A stretch of DNA of 64,000 nucleotides from positions 3,011-67,010 of the forward strand of contig JAUVGH010000003.1 in NCBI GenBank assembly GCA_030593885.1, written 5' to 3'. Positions 53,395 to 61,464 of the stretch are shown here, piece by piece (positions within the stretch are counted from its first letter, which is position 1; each line of letters starts with the position of its first letter). The translations under genes and the position numbers were made by a program. Source of the DNA: Methanomassiliicoccales archaeon (GTDB lineage Archaea > Thermoplasmatota > Thermoplasmata > RBG-16-68-12 > SOIM01). The notes beneath the pieces were generated by a model that had not been told where the DNA came from, made no database searches, and worked only from the letters and a program-made list of their open reading frames with translations.

Positions 53395-54342
53395 TCACAG
53401 TTCAAGACAATACGTTATCCCTTCCTGCTCCGTCTCAAAGCCGACCGACTTGTAGAGGTTCAACGCCTTGGGGTTCTTCACAGCAACGCACAGGTAGAGA
53501 GTGTCCATGCCTTGGGCCTGGAGCCACTTCATCCCGTTCACCAAGAGGGCCTTTCCGATACCTCTTCTCCTATACTCTTTCAGAACGCCAAAGGCCCCTA
53601 TCCAACCGGTGTTGACATTATGTTCATTGTTATACTCCAGCTCTATCGTGGATAAGCACTCACCTGCAACCTCCCCGTCCAGTTTGGCCAAGGTTATCCT
53701 TTCCATGTCCATTGTAGAATCTTTCCACTTCTCGAGAGACTTCATCGTCCTGGGTGTGAACAACTCGTCCTCTGAGAAAGCGCTGTTGAGGGCGTACATG
53801 TATTCGGTCAACTGCTGATCGGTGGAATCCTCTAGCAGGAAGTGCTCGAATTCGAGATATTCAGAATGTTCCGGTGATTGGATGTCCGGGACCTTGTTGA
53901 CCATGATGTATTCGTGCCAGATCTCTTTGAACCCTAATTCCTCTATTATGGAGATCCTCCACTCGGTCCCCCTAAGGTCCCATACCTTCGCCCTTTCAAC
54001 TCCCCGCCCTCGGAGGTAGCCGACCGACCTTCTCAACAACTCTTGTTGGATCCCTTCCTCCCTGTAGTCCTGCAGGACCCAGAGTCCTATCCATCCCTCA
54101 TTGCGACCGTGTGCGAGCTGCCTCTTGGAGATCCTTGCGCCTCCGTAACCGATCGAGTTTCCTTCGTGAAGCACGAGCCAATGACCTTCGGCCTTCCAGT
54201 CGTCATCCTCGAAGGTGCTCTTCCTGAACACTTCTGGGTTCTGGATGTCCCACATTGGGTCGTCCCTGTTGGATGTGTTGATGAGGTTGACTATATCCTC
54301 TATGTCTTCAGGGGTCGGATGGAGGTATTCGAGGTTCGCCAT
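53395..54342 (-). CDS. Tandem GNAT-family N-acetyltransferase (two acetyltransferase domains)
   Basis: Two acetyl-CoA-binding-like segments: WVLQDYREEGIQQELL and GVLKEYRRRGIGKALL. Confidence 0.72.
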   Translation of the reverse strand: MANLEYLHPTPEDIEDIVNLINTSNRDDPMWDIQNPEVFRKSTFEDDDWKAEGHWLVLHEGNSIGYGGARISKRQLAHGRNEGWIGLWVLQDYREEGIQQELLRRSVGYLRGRGVERAKVWDLRGTEWRISIIEELGFKEIWHEYIMVNKVPDIQSPEHSEYLEFEHFLLEDSTDQQLTEYMYALNSAFSEDELFTPRTMKSLEKWKDSTMDMERITLAKLDGEVAGECLSTIELEYNNEHNVNTGWIGAFGVLKEYRRRGIGKALLVNGMKWLQAQGMDTLYLCVAVKNPKALNLYKSVGFETEQEGITYCLEL

Positions 54343-54390
54343 GCCAGTACAATCTAATTGCTTTAGATAAGTCTTTGGCAGAGCATCTTC

Positions 54391-55383
54391 TTAGATCGGC
54401 TTCCCTGATTGACCTGGCCCGGTTTCGGTCCCGAGGATCTCCTCATACATTAACCGAAAGACGTCCTCGTTCACAACGCTCAGGTCGTATCGCAGAAGCA
54501 TATTGGAGGCCTCCCGCAGCAGGAGATTCAGATCATCGATCGCACCATTGGCCACCCAAGAGTAGTTCTCATCAATCTCAACGATTCTGACACCGGCTTC
54601 CACAAGAGGCTTGCCCACAGCGAAATCCTCTGGACGGTTCTTCATCTCCTCGACAAAACGGCTGTCGCCCAATACGAAGAACTGGGCAATCATCTTGGCT
54701 ATGATAACATAGTAAGCATAACGGAAGTGCAGTTCCTTTGCCCCTACTTCAACGGACTCCATGCCCATTCCTCTGCAAAGTTCGTCAAAATTCGGATACA
54801 CATTACGGTACTCTGTGGTCCACGCCTCAAACTGGGATTCGAAATCCTCTGAGGATTCAGCGATTGATCGAAGTAGCATATAGCATATGCGATAGATGGG
54901 TGATCCCTTCCTGAAAACCTCCACCAAGTCGGCCGGAATCACTGACTTCGGCTCTCCGGGACGCATAGGGGGGACGCTTTCGAGAATCCTCTCACTGAGC
55001 TCTTGATCTGTCCAATTCCTTCCTGTCTGAAAGTTGTGGTACTCTGTGACTCCATCACTGCTGGTTAGGAAGAACCTCCACAGAACGCCGTCGGTTGCCA
55101 CACCGATATTGATGTTGTTCTTGCCTTTGGTGTGTGCTTCAATCTGGGTCCTGGCATCGTCCAATTCGCCCCTGAGTGAAATCCTGGACTCGATTACTAA
55201 GGGCTCTTCGAGCACAGTGCCAGCTCTCGCCCATCCCTCACGCAACTGGAGCTCCGTCGCCTTCCCGGGTTGAAGCTCAAGGCCGAACAAATCGTCAAAG
55301 AGGTCTATGAGCCATGCGTTTATGTCGACAAGCTGAGGGTCTTCTGAGCGGATATCGAAAATGCGCTTAACGAACTCGGCCAC
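54391..55383 (-). CDS. Restriction-enzyme N-terminal-like module (HSDR_N / type IIG-like nuclease-derived domain + helical linker) lacking any methyltransferase domain
   Basis: PLVIESR...NINIGVATDGVLWRFF resembles the (E-x-K)...TNG..W.ly core of type I/IIG N-termini. The C-terminal DVFRLMYEEILG resembles the motif that normally precedes the MTase domain, but the ORF stops 12 codons later. GTG start. Confidence 0.35.
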   Translation of the reverse strand: MAEFVKRIFDIRSEDPQLVDINAWLIDLFDDLFGLELQPGKATELQLREGWARAGTVLEEPLVIESRISLRGELDDARTQIEAHTKGKNNINIGVATDGVLWRFFLTSSDGVTEYHNFQTGRNWTDQELSERILESVPPMRPGEPKSVIPADLVEVFRKGSPIYRICYMLLRSIAESSEDFESQFEAWTTEYRNVYPNFDELCRGMGMESVEVGAKELHFRYAYYVIIAKMIAQFFVLGDSRFVEEMKNRPEDFAVGKPLVEAGVRIVEIDENYSWVANGAIDDLNLLLREASNMLLRYDLSVVNEDVFRLMYEEILGTETGPGQSGKPI

Positions 55384-55510
55384 AGGCCAGCATTCGACCG
55401 CATGATAATAAGTTTTGCTTTGTGCTCAACCGGAACAGTCAGGAGTTCACAGAAATCATTAAAGTACTACATCGATATTGATGCACTGCTTGGAGGGGCA
55501 TGGTGAACCA

Positions 55511-56395
55511 ATGGCTGTGAAGAAGAAGATAGTTCTTCTCGGTGATAGTGCCGTCGGGAAGACCAGTTTGATGCGCCGCTATGTGTTCGACCAGTTTGAG
55601 GGATCCTACGTCACGACAATCGGGAGCAAAGTGACGAGAAAGGAGATGACGATTATGAAAGATGACAGGGAGGTTGAGCTCAATCTCATTATCCACGACA
55701 TACTCGGAAGAGTGGGATACATGGCGCTACATGCGAGGACCTTTGCAGGTGCGCAGGGCGCCATTCTTGTCTCTGACCTGACTCGAAGGGAGACACTCAA
55801 AACACTGGAACTATATTGGATTCCATTGCTCTTCCAGGTGGTTGAGAATGTTCCGTTGGTTTTCACCTGTAATAAGTCAGACCTCACCGATGAGATATCG
55901 TTCAAACAAAAGGATATCAAGGACATAGCCTCAAGGTACAACGTTGGGATAGAGAATTCATTGAGCAATGGCCTCAAACCAAGTTACATGACAAGCGCCA
56001 AAACTGGCAAGAACGTGGAGAAAGCGTTTGAGAGTCTGGGCCATCTGATGATGTCGGAGAAAGCTCCAAGGGATCCCATAAAGGAACTGCACGAGAAGCT
56101 CATAGCTGAGGGCATTTACCGGCAATCCGATAGAAAGACTTTGATCGGTGCGGCGGATGCCTTGATCGTGGATTTCTGCGAGGGTCTGGATGATGATAGA
56201 GTGGCCCTCCTCTTACTCCGTCAGGAATTTACCAGGGCGGGCGTGGACGTGAGAAGCCCTTCGAAGGAAGGACTGTTGAAGGCTGTGGAGTATCTGGCAG
56301 AGGCTGAGTCCGAGTTCAAAGATGAGGGTCAGGTGCTGAAGGACAAAGAGAGAAGATTTCAGTTGGTAAAGAAAGCGAGAACGATCACTAGATGA
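55511..56395 (+). CDS. Rab/Ras-like small GTPase with ~114-aa C-terminal extension
   Basis: G1 is GDSAVGKT, switch I YVTTIG, G3 DILG, G4 NKSD and G5 TSAKTGKNVEKAF. ATG 55511 was chosen; the track ORF begins at TTG 55478. Confidence 0.8.
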   Translation: MAVKKKIVLLGDSAVGKTSLMRRYVFDQFEGSYVTTIGSKVTRKEMTIMKDDREVELNLIIHDILGRVGYMALHARTFAGAQGAILVSDLTRRETLKTLELYWIPLLFQVVENVPLVFTCNKSDLTDEISFKQKDIKDIASRYNVGIENSLSNGLKPSYMTSAKTGKNVEKAFESLGHLMMSEKAPRDPIKELHEKLIAEGIYRQSDRKTLIGAADALIVDFCEGLDDDRVALLLLRQEFTRAGVDVRSPSKEGLLKAVEYLAEAESEFKDEGQVLKDKERRFQLVKKARTITR

Positions 56396-56413
56396 TGGGG
56401 GAGTGAGGGACAA

Positions 56414-59400
56414 ATGGCAGAACTGGAATTCCAACCAGAGCTCATTGGACGAGAGAGCGAATTGGAGGTGCTGGAAGGACATCTGGTGAGAGCATCTGAA
56501 GGGAAGGGAGCAACTGTCTTCATTTCTGGAGAGGCTGGAATCGGCAAGACGCGATTGATGAATGAGCTGAAGCAAATCGCAGAGACCAAGGGTTTCCGTG
56601 TGCTGTCAGGTCACAGCTTGTATGAATCCATGACACCTTACATGCCATTCCGAGAGGCTTTGATGTCGGGGGGATTAGAATACCTTTTTGCAGATAAGTC
56701 CCCGAGGGTCGAGGCAGTCTATTTGGTGACTGATGTTGGATTGCTGGTAAAAGAGGTTGTAAGGAAAGGTACTCATTTGGACGCAGACATATTCTCGTCC
56801 ACCTTGACCACTGTGGCCGACTTCGTCAAAGAATCTCTATCGGTTTTCAGGGGAGATGAGGCGCGCGATAGTCTGAACAGAATCGGGTACGGCGATTACG
56901 TCATTCTCATCGAAAGTGAAGGAGGCAAGAACCTGGTAGTTATTCTCACAGGCAGAGAGAACGAATTCCTGATAGATGATATGAGGGGAGTGCTCAAGGA
57001 AGTCGAGAGCAAGTACGGAGATGTGCTCAAAGATTGGGATGGTGATGAGGGGGGAGTGGAGAGCATAGACGATCTGCTGAAGACGCTCATGACCTCGGGG
57101 AAGTACGACGGAACATATTATGGAGAGGCGAATCCGGAGGCGAGAAGGAATCTGTTGATGGAAAACGTCACCCTGGGCCTGAGCAGACTATCCCATACGG
57201 TGCCGACGCTCTTGTGCATAGATGATCTTCAGTGGGCGGACCCCTCAACGCTTGCCTTGATGCATTATCTTGCAAGGAACACAGTGACATCTGGAGTATT
57301 CGTCCTGGGAGCATATCGACCTGAGGACCTGGTGACTAAAGGGGGGGAGGGACATCCTCTCAATGACAGGATTCGGTTGATGAGCCGAGAGGGACTGCAT
57401 GAAGGAATGGAACTGGGAAGATTGCCTTGGGAAACCATCTCCTCCTTCCTTCCGTCTCTGCTGGGCGATGTCGATTTCGATGAGGAATTTGAGCGAAGAA
57501 TTCACAAGGAAACAGAAGGAAACCCTTTGTTCATCATTGAACTGGCAAGACTGATGGTTGAAGAAGGGATCATAGCAAAGGACAACGGAACGTGGAAACT
57601 TGGGACGAGTATGGACGAGGTAAACGTGCCATCCAAGATACATGACGTAATCCTAAGGAAATTGGACAGATTGGGCACAGAGAAGAGAAGGATTCTGGAC
57701 TACGCCTCGGTCATAGGAGAAGTATTCAGGTCCGAGATACTTGCAGCATCTCTGGAACTAGAGAGAATCAGATTGCTGGAGCTATTGCGCAATCTGGAAC
57801 AGACTCACAAACTGGTTCATTCCCAGAATGAGGGATACAGATTCGACCACTCAAAGGTCAAAGAAGTGCTATATGGCAAGATTCCTGCAGAACTCAAAAG
57901 AGAATATCATTCCGTGATAGCTGACTCCATCAAATCGCTGAACAGAGATAGCCTGGATGAAGTTGTAGAGGACTTGGCATTCCATTACTACCGTGGTAGG
58001 AACAAGGAAGAGGCACTTCGTTATCTTATCAAAGCGGCAGACAAATGCAAGAAAGAGTACTCAAACGAAGAGGCGACACGATTCTACAATGAGGCTCTGG
58101 AACTGGAAGAGGATGCGCAGAAGAGATTGGAAGTATTCGAGGGTTTGGGAGACATTTACAGATTAATCGGAGACTATGAGAAGAGCGTAGAGTCCTACGA
58201 GAGCGCATTGGAATTGATCGAAGAGAAGAGAAAGAAGGCTGAGGTCAAGACCAGGATTGGGGCCGTCTACACGAGAAAGGGTGAGTATGGCAACGCAATA
58301 AAGGTCTGCACCGAGGCATGGAACTCAGTTGAAGGTGAGGATTGCGAGGAGGAGGCCTTTGCCCTCAACTACATCGGCGTCGTGCATTACGAAAGAGGAG
58401 AATACGACAGAGCCCTCAAGTCCTACGAGAAGAGCCTTGAGATAAGGGAGAAGAGGGGGGACCAGAAGGGCATTGCAGGATCCTTCAACAACATCGGCAA
58501 TGTGCATTGGAGAATGGGAGAATACGACAGGGCCCTCAAGTCCTACGAGAGGAGCCTTGAGTTGAGTGAGAAGACCGGCGACCAGGAGTTTACCGCAATT
58601 CACCTCGGGAACATTGGCGTTGTGCATTTCGATAGAGGGGAATACGATAGGGCCCTCGAGTACTACGAGAGGAGCCTTGAGATAAGGGAGGAGATCGGCG
58701 ACCAGGAGGGGATTGCACTCACCCTCAACAGCTTCGGCAATGTGCATACTGAGAGAGGAGAATACGATAGGGCCCTCGAGTACTACGAGAGGAGTCTGGG
58801 GATATCGGAGAAGATCGGCGACCAGCACAGGATTGCAAGACCCCTCAACAACGTCGGCAGTGTGCATTGGAGCATGGGAGAATACGACAGGGCCCTCGAG
58901 TACTACGAGAGGAGTCTGGAGATTAATGAGAAGATTGGCGACCAGGACGGGATTGCAACCAACCTCAACGGCATCGGCAATGTGCATTGGAGCATGGGAG
59001 AATACGACAGGGCCCTCGGGTACCACGAGAGGAGTCTGGGGATATCGGAGAAGATTGGCGACAGGGAAGGAGCCACTGAGTCATACTGTCGCATTGCAGA
59101 AGTCTATTTTGAAAAGAGAAATCTGAGAAGAGCACTGGATTTCTGCAATAGAGCATTTGACCTGTCCAGAGAGGTTGGTTTGAAGGAGAGCGAGGCAGCA
59201 TCAAGGAGAATCTTCGGAAAGATCCATAGAGAGCGAGAAAAGTGGAAGGAATCGATTGAAGAATTCGAGGAGAGCATCAGGATATTCGAGGAGATTGGAA
59301 TGAAGAAGGGGTTAGGAGACTCCCACTACGAGTTCGGTCTCATGTATAAGGACAAAGGTGATACGGGCAAAGCAAAGGAGTATCTGGACAAGGCAGCTGC

Positions 59401-59470
59401 GATATTCGAAGGGATGCACTTGGATCTGCAGTTGGATGAGGTGAGGAAAGCCCTAGATGGACTGACCTGA
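56414..59470 (+). CDS. STAND (AAA_16-type) ATPase with internal Roadblock/LC7-like insertion and C-terminal TPR array
   Basis: The N-terminus GRESELEVLEGHL, Walker A GEAGIGKT and Walker B LLCIDDLQWAD follow the AAA_16 pattern. The EGNPLFIIEL helical arm follows, then at least 9 TPR units, six of them nearly identical (GEYDRAL..Y.RSL.I.EKIGDQ). The gene starts 18 bp after the GTPase stop. Confidence 0.8.
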   Translation: MAELEFQPELIGRESELEVLEGHLVRASEGKGATVFISGEAGIGKTRLMNELKQIAETKGFRVLSGHSLYESMTPYMPFREALMSGGLEYLFADKSPRVEAVYLVTDVGLLVKEVVRKGTHLDADIFSSTLTTVADFVKESLSVFRGDEARDSLNRIGYGDYVILIESEGGKNLVVILTGRENEFLIDDMRGVLKEVESKYGDVLKDWDGDEGGVESIDDLLKTLMTSGKYDGTYYGEANPEARRNLLMENVTLGLSRLSHTVPTLLCIDDLQWADPSTLALMHYLARNTVTSGVFVLGAYRPEDLVTKGGEGHPLNDRIRLMSREGLHEGMELGRLPWETISSFLPSLLGDVDFDEEFERRIHKETEGNPLFIIELARLMVEEGIIAKDNGTWKLGTSMDEVNVPSKIHDVILRKLDRLGTEKRRILDYASVIGEVFRSEILAASLELERIRLLELLRNLEQTHKLVHSQNEGYRFDHSKVKEVLYGKIPAELKREYHSVIADSIKSLNRDSLDEVVEDLAFHYYRGRNKEEALRYLIKAADKCKKEYSNEEATRFYNEALELEEDAQKRLEVFEGLGDIYRLIGDYEKSVESYESALELIEEKRKKAEVKTRIGAVYTRKGEYGNAIKVCTEAWNSVEGEDCEEEAFALNYIGVVHYERGEYDRALKSYEKSLEIREKRGDQKGIAGSFNNIGNVHWRMGEYDRALKSYERSLELSEKTGDQEFTAIHLGNIGVVHFDRGEYDRALEYYERSLEIREEIGDQEGIALTLNSFGNVHTERGEYDRALEYYERSLGISEKIGDQHRIARPLNNVGSVHWSMGEYDRALEYYERSLEINEKIGDQDGIATNLNGIGNVHWSMGEYDRALGYHERSLGISEKIGDREGATESYCRIAEVYFEKRNLRRALDFCNRAFDLSREVGLKESEAASRRIFGKIHREREKWKESIEEFEESIRIFEEIGMKKGLGDSHYEFGLMYKDKGDTGKAKEYLDKAAAIFEGMHLDLQLDEVRKALDGLT
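58397..59116 (+). repeat. Intragenic tandem repeat, six units of exactly 120 bp (40-aa TPR units)
   Basis: GGAGAATACGACAG(G/A)GCCCTC recurs, with minor variants, at 58397, 58517, 58637, 58757, 58877 and 58997, with long stretches of nucleotide identity. Confidence 0.85.
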
Positions 59471-59552
59471 GTGACGAGGTCAAAACGATTCTAACATCCG
59501 GAAGCAGTGAGTAAGCACTGAAGTATACTCCCCAGAACATATCATGAGTTCT

Positions 59553-60323
59553 TCATTCGAAGCCAAGAAGACAAGCCATATCATAACCTGACTGCGTCAG
59601 GTTCACCTTCCTCCGCCTGCCCAACTTCTCAATCTCAACGTATCCCACATCCACCAGTGGTTTCAAAATGGTCTTGGTGAGTTTGACCGTCAACCTTGTC
59701 TTCTCCGCCCGAAGTGTCATCTTTGTCACTTTGGTGTCGAACCCTGGGACTCCATTCCTTCTCAGTACGTCGAAGAGCTCCTGATAGGATTGGGACTTCT
59801 GTGGTGATGATGCAAGACTCCCAAGAACGCTGGTTCCCGCCTCGGAAGGTAACGAGAGCCCGAAACTGGGAACCATGATCGGATTCCCGAGCATTCCCCT
59901 GCTCAGACCATGCTTCTTCAGACCTTTCTCGGTTCTCATGTGCTCCTCGGGTCTGACATAGTATGCGTATCCCCGATCTCTCAAGTGTGCCATGGACGCA
60001 AGCATCCCTGCAACCGCGGCCAATTTTCCAGCAGAGGAGATGTTAACGTAGACCCGGTTCCCCTTCTTGACTTCCTCTTCGACCAATCTGGTCGTTTCCC
60101 GCATGAGACCTTTGAGATCGCTCTCGGAGTCAACTTTGGTGTGGACGACTTCGACCCCTTCACCCTTCAGTTCTTCTGACACGCGATGGAAGAAATGTCG
60201 TTGCATATCATGAGCATCGGGATTGCAGAGGAGATGCGCCCTGTGGGCCTTCATAGCCCGCACTGGAAGGACAGCCCTGTCCAACTCCCAGCCGAGTGGA
60301 ATGACGTGGACTAAGCGTTCCAT
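59553..60323 (-). CDS. Csa3/CARF-like Rossmann domain + C-terminal winged-helix regulator (DUF6293/HFX_2341-like)
   Basis: HVIPLGWELDRAVLPV, RAHLLCNP and VYVNISSAGKLAAVAGMLA mirror the CARF/Csa3 N-domain strand-helix pattern. The C-terminal ILKPLVDVGYVEIEKLGRRRKVNLTQSG looks like a wHTH. Confidence 0.45.
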   Translation of the reverse strand: MERLVHVIPLGWELDRAVLPVRAMKAHRAHLLCNPDAHDMQRHFFHRVSEELKGEGVEVVHTKVDSESDLKGLMRETTRLVEEEVKKGNRVYVNISSAGKLAAVAGMLASMAHLRDRGYAYYVRPEEHMRTEKGLKKHGLSRGMLGNPIMVPSFGLSLPSEAGTSVLGSLASSPQKSQSYQELFDVLRRNGVPGFDTKVTKMTLRAEKTRLTVKLTKTILKPLVDVGYVEIEKLGRRRKVNLTQSGYDMACLLGFE

Positions 60324-60447
60324 GCAGGGTAGAATGACGCAGGATGATTAAGATGTTTTCTATGTTTACTATCATGTTTTAGCATTAGACCAGTTTCTGG
60401 TGAAGCTCCAAATAACCTCGGCTGGACTTCAATATCGGGTTGATACC

Positions 60448-61464
60448 ATGAAATTGTGGAAAGTATTCCTCAGTTTGGTTACCGTGAGCCTGCTTTTGAC
60501 TGTCTCCTTGAGCATTCCCATGAATGCCTTGGTAGTGGGTGCGGCGCCACCGGACAAGTGCGATCCCTGGCCCGAGTGCAAAGATGGCGGGGGTGGCGAG
60601 GAGCCTTCAGCAGACCCAGCTATTGCATTCACAAGGAAAAAAGGTCTCATTTCAATACTCACGGTGATGAACGCTGATGGCACAAATCGGGTCGATTTAG
60701 ATTCCGAGCGTTATCTTCGAAACCCAACGTGGTCGCCAGATGGGTCTTCTATCGCCTATCTAAAAGGCGTGCCGCACAGTCTCTACCGTATCGATGTAGC
60801 GGTGGTCAATGGTACAGTGCAGGGAAGCGAGCCAACGCTTCTGTATGAAGACATCCAAATGGACCCCGCATGGTCACCTTTGGGCGATAAGATTGCATTC
60901 ATACAGAAGACCTACGACCCCTCTTTGGGTTATGACCGTCCAAGACTAGTCCAGACGATTTCACTTGGCGACGGTTCTGTTGAAACCTTGTATACGGCAG
61001 ATGAAGGACATTTTTTGCTGGACCCGACATGGAGCCCGGACGCCACTAGGATCGCGTTTGTAGGCTGGGCACGGATACTGGATGTCGGAAGATCGTATAT
61101 CGATATCCTAACAATTGGATCGGGAGAGCCTCCTGAGAGAGTCTATGAGTATGGATCGGTTGGCATAAGGGATTTGGATTGGTCGCGTACGCCGGACAAG
61201 CTGGCGTTTCAGTTATGGCCTTCCCTCGATGGATCCGAAGACAGTGCGATCTATACTCTTGACATAACGCAGAGCGATCCGACACCGCAGTTCGTTTCCG
61301 GAGAGAATTGCCGTTATCCTTCTTGGTCGCCCGACGATACTCAGTTGGTGTTTGACCGACCCGTCAGTCAAGTAAAGATCTTTACATATGACTTTGCGAC
61401 AGGGGAGACCACGGAGCTCGGGAAAGGTCGGGACCCAGACTGGAGCAGGCACGTAAGCAGTTAG
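60448..61464 (+). CDS. Secreted TolB-like beta-propeller protein (PD40/WD40-like repeats)
   Basis: Signal MKLWKVFLSLVTVSLLLTVSLS. The repeats are PTWSPDGSSIAY, PAWSPLGDKIAF, PTWSPDATRIAF, LDWSRTPDKLAF and PSWSPDDTQLVF. Confidence 0.7.
   Translation: MKLWKVFLSLVTVSLLLTVSLSIPMNALVVGAAPPDKCDPWPECKDGGGGEEPSADPAIAFTRKKGLISILTVMNADGTNRVDLDSERYLRNPTWSPDGSSIAYLKGVPHSLYRIDVAVVNGTVQGSEPTLLYEDIQMDPAWSPLGDKIAFIQKTYDPSLGYDRPRLVQTISLGDGSVETLYTADEGHFLLDPTWSPDATRIAFVGWARILDVGRSYIDILTIGSGEPPERVYEYGSVGIRDLDWSRTPDKLAFQLWPSLDGSEDSAIYTLDITQSDPTPQFVSGENCRYPSWSPDDTQLVFDRPVSQVKIFTYDFATGETTELGKGRDPDWSRHVSS

Follow-up and report, generated by a model that had tools for sequence, protein, structure and literature searches.

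The question raised by this locus is how six closely similar tetratricopeptide repeat (TPR) units came to stand in tandem within one archaeal gene, and what has kept them alike. The window, a stretch of 64,000 nucleotides, belongs to a Thermoplasmatota metagenome-assembled genome (MAG; 2.14 Mb in 91 contigs), and the gene in question, P0001 (paralog copy C87), encodes a STAND-type P-loop NTPase whose C-terminal TPR sensor contains the units. In-register unequal recombination and/or gene conversion (concerted evolution) of the sensor-arm units in this effector-less NTPase, with the groove positions kept diverse, is the likely explanation, since the units share a young DNA ancestor, are mosaic in their relationships, and form an array that has gained two units in a family whose arrays change length in quanta of 40 amino acids (aa). 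It is well supported that the P0001 array is an archaeal, moderately homogenised case of a known evolutionary mode; this mode has already been described in fungal and bacterial immune-type receptors.

56414..59470, + strand: P0001 gene, a 1018-aa AAA_16/STAND-type P-loop NTPase with a C-terminal TPR sensor (open reading frame, Pfam, AlphaFold2, Foldseek)
58355..59074, + strand: homogenised array of six 120-nt (40-aa) TPR units, 720 bp (Tandem Repeats Finder, unit tables, codon sharing, synonymous divergence, AlphaFold2)
58355, 58475, 58595, 58715, 58835 and 58955, + strand: starts of the six units (A1 of helix A; residue 648 + 40k)

The six-unit array

The period is recovered by Tandem Repeats Finder (58362-59062, period 120, 5.8 copies, 78% matches, score 722). 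The motif GEYDRAL recurs every 40 residues, at residues 662, 702, 742, 782, 822 and 862 (nucleotides 58397 + 120k, k = 0-5), which are the positions 58397, 58517, 58637, 58757, 58877 and 58997 listed in a first-pass annotation of this DNA. That annotation placed six 120-bp units at 58397-59116, which is right in period and in number of copies and wrong in phase: it begins in the turn between helices A and B, and its sixth unit (58997-59116) is homologous only over the first ~66 nt. With helix A first, the true phase is 58355-59074, the first helix A lying upstream of 58397. Calling the units near-identical also goes too far, as identity between pairs is 60-78% at the protein level and 70-86% for DNA. 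A search of 5.8 billion proteins gave the 120 members of the family closest to P0001, and of all these arrays that of P0001 is the most uniform (mean unit identity 0.65; family median 0.34).

Canonical TPR numbering was set by aligning the unit to the designed consensus TPR, and one unit corresponds to a 34-residue TPR plus six extra residues (IGDQxG). In the AlphaFold2 (AF2) model, each unit of the array forms two helices of 17-18 residues, with a predicted local distance difference test score (pLDDT) of 95-99. On their consensus pattern and paired helices, the units can be assigned to the TPR: L4, I7, G8, H11, A20, Y24 and S27 are conserved between units, with E in place of P32 and a length of 40 aa rather than 34.

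Two other open reading frames cross the repeat, one antisense (58325-59026, - strand) and one in another frame (58713-59126, + strand). Neither has a credible family match, and both seem to arise from the periodicity of the sequence and its few stop codons.

Common ancestry of the units at the DNA level

At positions where two units have the same amino acid, they also have the same codon in 320 of 383 cases (0.84), against 0.38 expected from local codon usage, so that the first-pass annotation was correct in describing the scaffold as conserved at the nucleotide level. The choice of codon is specific to the position: E16 is always GAA, E25 and E32 are always GAG, and H11 and L21 are CAT and CTC, respectively, in all six units. 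The same-codon fraction reaches 0.77 in P50 (copy C50); the remaining three paralogs have 0.37, 0.43 and 0.50 and the syntenic ortholog 0.37, with 0.37-0.38 expected.

Synonymous divergence (pS) between the P0001 units has a mean of 0.30 and a minimum of 0.11. Outside the array, pS is 0.79 between P0001 and its closest paralog P50 (N-terminal region) and 0.69-0.87 between P0001 and the syntenic ortholog, and the units of older paralogs differ from one another by 0.68-0.84. Since an excess of shared codons is found together with low pS between units, the units coalesce far later than the gene, and all six have a DNA ancestor that is much younger than the gene itself.

It could be argued that there has been no recent exchange of DNA at all, and that the likeness of protein and codons is maintained by codon bias and by selection for a stable TPR scaffold near the consensus. 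The unit is near the designed consensus TPR, consensus TPR (CTPR) proteins are the best sequence matches in the PDB (E=7e-72), and units of unrelated family members are equally similar in protein. However, codon usage predicts 38% same-codon pairs where 84% were found, and the three paralogs and the ortholog, which have the same fold and the same genome-wide bias, reach only 37-50%. The position-specific choice between GAA at E16 and GAG at E25 and E32 also argues against it, as does the ortholog, which has exactly two units fewer. This alternative is already contradicted by the synonymous-site data and is very improbable.

The relationships between the units are mosaic. In a four-gamete test, 69 of the 136 informative site pairs were incompatible; therefore, gene conversion or repeated unequal exchange fits better than a single series of duplications. 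A PHI-like test for spatial clustering of the incompatible sites was uninformative at the length of the array (p=0.46). There are hints of a block of 3+3 units, as Tandem Repeats Finder scores period 360 highest and the codons of S27 and L28 part units 1-3 from units 4-6. A clean 3+3 block duplication as the sole history was rejected since other pairings are mosaic (u2-u5 0.84, u4-u6 0.83, u1-u4 0.74, u3-u6 0.69). Recent unit duplication or gene conversion, as proposed in the first-pass annotation, is supported by the incompatible pairs, by the difference in pS within and outside the array, and by the shorter array of the ortholog.

Gain and loss of units

The source genome has five full-length paralogs, 52-56% identical to P0001. 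No relative with more than 58% overall identity to P0001 was found in 40 related genomes or among 5.8 billion proteins, and a search of genome contigs for related loci gave no relative. The protein P0010 (locus L030) is 72% identical to P0001 over the N-terminal 560 residues and is, by gene order, its positional ortholog. Positions 1-6655 of L030 and 53395-60323 of the window carry five genes in identical order and orientation, with saturated synonymous sites.

Five-gene block, identity between the window and L030: GNAT acetyltransferase 56%; 329-aa protein 64%; Ras-like GTPase 84%; STAND-TPR protein 60%; CARF-wHTH protein 79%

The alignment of P0001 with P0010 runs over the full length of both, broken only by exactly 80 residues (two units) that are missing from the array of the ortholog, whose four units are fully diverged (pS 0.76, same-codon fraction 0.37). 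The P0001 array has gained two units relative to this ortholog. The sister paralog P50 has undergone the same kind of change over a shorter time: P50 and P0082 are 94% identical with pS 0.14 outside the array and differ in length by exactly 120 aa, or three units; P0082 comes from a 3.3-kb contig with 2.9x coverage. In 78 family proteins, the distance from anchor to anchor across the TPR region is 304, 344, 384, 424, 464 or 504 aa, and 70 of the 78 differ from P0001 by exact multiples of 40 aa. Array length in the family thus shifts in exact 40-aa quanta. The units of the three older paralogs are fully diverged, and relatives with 84-94% identity have kept them stably.

Compared with the ortholog, no part of the locus has evolved faster than the array. 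Nonsynonymous divergence (pN) rises from 0.15-0.20 in the NTPase to 0.41 in the array, and identity falls from 84% in the GTPase encoded by the adjacent gene (88% in its C-terminal extension) to ~72-76% in the NTPase and only 40% in the array.

Tandem repeats are a known assembly hazard, and the first-pass annotation considered the array prone to collapse or expansion. The number or sequence of the units would then be an artefact (collapse, expansion or chimera in a metagenome contig), which the 91 contigs of the MAG and the thin coverage of the P0082 contig could be taken to favour. Against this, the longest exact word common to the units is 38 nt, and only 15 31-mers are repeated in the array, so that normal k-mers and reads of 100-150 nt resolve it. 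Moreover, the reading frame is intact, the 424-aa anchor distance of P0001 is also found in 11 other family proteins, and the AF2 model is continuous through the array at high pLDDT. An artefact of this kind is hardly credible here.

Positions at which the units differ

As the first-pass annotation noted, the differences between units are concentrated at a few positions. Four to six different residues are found among the six units at positions 2, 3, 6, 12, 13 and 38, and three residues each at positions 7, 9, 22, 31, 34, 39 and 40, and 17 positions are invariant, including all of 15-21. Entropy across 578 units of the family is highest at positions 2, 12, 13, 9, 38, 31 and 5. Even where homogenisation has gone furthest, ~80-90% of unit pairs differ at these positions, against <50% at most others.

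In TPRs in general, the most variable positions, which lie on the concave ligand-binding face, are 2, 5, 9, 12, 13, 33 and 34 (Magliery and Regan, PMC1261162). In LGN/Pins, the closest natural relatives with a solved structure, ligand peptides occupy the inner groove and are hydrogen-bonded there by the Asn of the L-G-N triplet, which stands at position 9 (PMC3438535). By homology, the variable sites of P0001 appear to match these canonical concave-groove positions, and the variable stripe of helix A (2, 6, 9, 13) faces away from the conserved packing stripe (1, 4, 8, 11). According to the first-pass annotation, random variation, or variation on the convex or packing face, would have spoken against its proposal; on canonical numbering, the LGN alignment and the helical moment, the variable set instead appears to be the canonical groove set.

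The ratio pN/pS was calculated from unit comparisons chosen as a minimum-spanning set, and its value of 0.27 in helix B shows purifying selection there. The canonical hypervariable codons have a pN of 0.45 and a pN/pS of 0.93, and this pN is higher than the pS of the array as a whole (0.25; Fisher p=0.006). This is no proof of positive selection, as six recombining sequences cannot part it from relaxed constraint or from conversion tracts that spare older helix A segments. The suggestion that ligand-contacting residues have been diversified holds in part: the variable sites are, by homology, the groove-facing set, but diversifying selection is not shown, pN/pS being about 1 in the hypervariable codons.

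A diversity-generating retroelement target was also considered and rejected. The hypervariable codons are of all kinds rather than adenine-specific, and no search aimed at a reverse transcriptase was made. At position 2, the codons of the six units are TTT, GGA, ATT, CTC, AGA and ACC.

Architecture of P0001 and a possible mode of action

56528..56551, + strand: Walker A, GEAGIGKT, residues 39-46 (from the translation; conserved in homologs)
56702..57034, + strand: Roadblock/LC7-like insert in the Walker A-Walker B interval, residues ~97-207, ~110 aa (AF2 secondary structure; JGI homolog names)
57209..57226, + strand: Walker B, LLCIDD, residues 266-271 (from the translation)
58004..58354, + strand: three diverged N-terminal TPR hairpins and linker, residues 531-647 (AF2 helices H531-547 to H625-638)
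59075..59458, + strand: three diverged C-terminal TPR hairpins and capping helix, residues 888-1015 (AF2 helices H884-900 to H1004-1015)
55478..56395 (likely ATG 55511), + strand: Ras/Roc-family small GTPase with a ~110-aa C-terminal extension (Pfam Ras 8.3e-27, Roc 4.8e-20)

In Pfam, P0001 matches AAA_16 (E=1.8e-21, from residue 9), TPR_12 (E=3.6e-88) and TPR_1 (E=1.6e-61), with NB-ARC and NACHT below threshold; in NCBIfam, it partly resembles AfsR and TOMM kinase/cyclase-type ATPase regions. In 106 homologs, G39, E40, A41, G42, G44, K45 and T46 of Walker A are almost invariant, and D271 of Walker B is invariant, as are W274 and D276 shortly downstream. With both Walker motifs present, P0001 has the P-loop nucleotide-binding domain of STAND NTPases.

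The AF2 model, built from the 106 homologs (mean pLDDT 88.9; TPRs 95-99), shows in order a P-loop core, helical and winged-helix-like segments, 12 TPR hairpins and a capping helix. Residues 315-530 consist of helical and beta-hairpin (winged-helix-like) segments and are followed by the TPRs. Foldseek matches of the model are 6mfv (the STAND-TPR protein PH0952) and the TPR structures of LGN/Pins. The alignment to 6mfv_A spans 1009 columns (E=6.5e-13), yet with a TM score of just 0.17-0.25. The hairpins on both sides of the array have diverged from its units: the unit hidden Markov model gives only 3-8 bits on the N-terminal hairpins, and the C-terminal hairpins are only 20-33% identical to the array units in amino acids. 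No Rfam family was detected in 55000-60500.

The insert between the Walker motifs has a beta-beta-alpha-beta-beta-beta-alpha topology in the AF2 model (E98-106, E111-116, H124-145, E154-159, E162-169, E172-179, H184-206), with a pLDDT of only 40-85. The JGI names of P0001 homologs include 'Roadblock/LC7/MglB', and a Pfam scan of the isolated insert did not detect Roadblock. Segments matching the insert (residues ~99-230) are also found in open reading frames of 1416-1869 aa elsewhere in the genome (C66:19347-21446, C90:46756-47115, C90:51791-52162 and C10:22084-22461), the one on C66 matching it twice.

Eighteen bp separate the end of the GTPase gene from the ATPase gene downstream, and the GTPase is a probable operon partner of P0001. 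The same pairing of GTPase and STAND-TPR genes is found for three of the five paralogs in the source genome, including C50:26485-27381 and C47:5707-6588, and in at least eight loci of other genomes (L011, L012, L014, L015, L017, L018, L019 and L030). The partner GTPase itself is unlikely to be the ligand of the array, because it is 84-88% conserved and the array only 40%.

A possible mode of action can be described as follows. The six 40-residue units occupy the central part of a TPR superhelix of 12 hairpins, the sensor arm of the NTPase. Homogenisation may hold helix B and the packing residues near an idealised TPR consensus, and the groove stripe of helix A (2, 3, 6, 9, 12, 13) and the preceding loop (38-40) would stay different in each unit. 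Because this stripe and loop differ, a putative ligand lying extended in the concave channel, whether peptide or protein, may meet a different pocket in each unit. On the model of MalT and PH0952, a ligand in the TPR arm would release the autoinhibition of the nucleotide-binding core, with the Roadblock-like insert and the neighbouring Ras-like GTPase as the probable route of the output.

Several points weigh against concerted evolution of a sensor with a diversified groove. In protein, the units are about as similar to consensus-like units of other members (0.65-0.72) as to their own neighbours (0.68-0.72), and a nearest-neighbour analysis at this level could not separate similarity within from similarity between proteins. 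The case is therefore carried by synonymous sites, as protein similarity alone could reflect convergence on a stable consensus. The variability moment of helix A is 0.36 against 0.19 in shuffled data, a marginal result (p about 0.05), and the putative concave-face assignment relies on canonical numbering and homology. Inside the hypervariable codons, pN/pS is 0.93-1.44, that is, about 1, as their own synonymous rate is also high. Pfam, NCBIfam and PADLOC revealed no effector domain at either terminus, AAA_16 beginning at residue 9 and the TPR cap ending at residue 1015 of 1018. Finally, although collapse or expansion of the array seems unlikely, the count of units is that of the assembled contig.

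An immune-type sensor?

The first-pass annotation compared the array with rapidly evolving immune-type sensors. P0001 would then be an NLR-like immune or non-self sensor comparable to fungal NWD/HET-E and bacterial Avs/NLR-like proteins, its array being under diversifying selection to keep pace with fast-changing ligands of viral or other foreign origin. Several of the observations above agree with this idea. There are five paralogs in a 2.1-Mb genome, no relative of P0001 above 58% overall identity turned up (40 relatives, 5.8 billion proteins), and the number of units changes over time. The array has changed faster than the rest of the locus, with 40% amino acid identity against 56-88% in neighbouring genes, and pN in the hypervariable codons exceeds the array-wide pS. 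The same pattern is documented in the TPRs of fungal NLRs (PMC4986451).

However, P0001 is without an N- or C-terminal effector or death domain, and the locus is a stable syntenic block of five genes, not a variable island, with a GTPase partner that is 84% conserved. In PADLOC-DB 2.0, which covers Avs, bNACHT and other systems, P0001 matched only the generic 'TPR' model (PDLC01169, 7.5e-47), apart from SngB at 0.005 over 54 P-loop residues, and the GTPase matched nothing. With an internal identity of 60-78%, the array does not reach the 85% used for highly conserved NLR repeats, pN/pS in the hypervariable codons does not depart from about 1, and the fully diverged units of the three older paralogs are stable in close relatives. 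The immune analogy is thus not supported by these data, and an immune function is unlikely.

A more specific proposal is that these proteins are an archaeal counterpart of NLRs: multi-paralog STAND ATPases without effectors, whose grooves are re-tooled by unit duplication and conversion for foreign (viral or competitor) peptides, and whose built-in Roadblock module, in place of a fused death domain, gives the output by switching a dedicated Ras-like GTPase. This is doubtful at best. If it were true, the five paralogs would form a time series, from freshly homogenised sensors (C87, C50) to fixed, diverged ones (C43a, C47, C43b).

Comparison with known systems

Fungal NLR-like STAND proteins of the Podospora nwd/het-e family have highly internally conserved (HIC) TPR, ankyrin or WD repeats (Dyrka et al. 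2014, PMC4986451), for which HIC is defined as >85% identity between repeats over at least 100 aa (PMC4986451). Like them, P0001 has a repeat sensor C-terminal to a STAND NTPase, recent shared DNA ancestry of its units, changes by whole units, variation at putative concave-face helix positions, and several paralogs per genome. The changes in repeat number and the concerted evolution that characterise HIC repeats are found in the P0001 family as well (two units more than in the ortholog, three units between P50 and P0082, 40-aa quanta, pS 0.30 against 0.69-0.87). P0001 differs in its internal identity of 60-78%, below the >85% of HIC repeats, in that positive selection is not demonstrated, and in its archaeal host, small-GTPase partner, Roadblock-like insert in the ATPase core and lack of an effector domain.

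PH0952 (PDB 6MFV) and MalT are STAND ATPases in which a TPR sensor is presumed to bind the inducer and to autoinhibit the core (Lisa et al. 2019, PMC6468293). They share with P0001 a P-loop nucleotide-binding domain and a TPR sensor, and the intervening succession of helical and winged-helix region and arm may be common to them too. Like P0001, PH0952 comes from an archaeon. The Foldseek alignment to 6mfv covers the whole P0001 model at the low TM score given above. Both carry DNA-binding effector domains, whereas P0001 has none, and both are without the Roadblock insert and the GTPase partner that P0001 has. Their TPRs are diverged 34-residue repeats (six in PH0952), whereas in P0001 six of the 12 hairpins are homogenised units of 40 residues.

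LGN/GPSM2/Pins (PDB 3SF4, 3RO2, 4A1S) are the best Foldseek matches and have the same 40-residue period, a gapless alignment of ~190 residues and an L/I-G-N triplet at positions 7-9. Ligands of LGN bind as extended peptides in the inner groove (PMC3438535). LGN differs in being a eukaryotic polarity scaffold without an NTPase, with old, diverged repeats; the likeness is one of TPR subtype and does not imply orthology.

Designed consensus TPRs (CTPR3, CTPR8; PDB 1NA0, 8BU0) are the top PDB sequence matches, the P0001 scaffold GEYDRALEYYERSLEI being very near the CTPR sequence GDYDEAIEYYQKALEL. P0001 is a natural gene, has an extension of six residues per unit, and varies between units at the groove positions.

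With this array, concerted evolution of a repeat sensor is documented quantitatively in a host that is neither fungal nor bacterial, and in a family with thousands of copies in Thermoplasmatota metagenomes. The value of the array lies in the archaeal setting, the quantised lengths of the family, a syntenic ortholog with two units fewer, and paralogs of different ages in one genome, which make it useful for studying how TPR arrays arise, homogenise and age. The hypervariable groove positions are the residues to mutate, or to bait with, in a search for the ligand of the GTPase-coupled STAND switch.

Neighbouring and related genes

The convergent gene downstream of P0001 (59553-60323, - strand) encodes a CARF-wHTH protein (Pfam HFX_2341_N and DUF6293_C; PADLOC CARF3 3.5e-56); no cas genes were seen near it in the part of the window inspected. 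At least 10 further small-GTPase genes, 33-41% identical to the GTPase of the window, are present in the genome, several of them in tandem clusters (C80:8950-11331, four in a row; C10:16275-17457, two; others on C43, C72, C90 and C24). C47 also encodes, ~400 bp downstream of P47 and in opposite orientation to it, a further P-loop and TPR protein of 742 aa (C47:10024-12252, - strand) with 33% identity to the array region of P0001.

A gene for a secreted PD40 beta-propeller protein neighbours both homogenised paralogs, at 60400-61464 in the window (C87) and at C50:22124-23107. The two proteins share the N-terminal motif PWPECKDGG...DPAIA, and the shared neighbour hints at a segmental duplication that included neighbouring genes.

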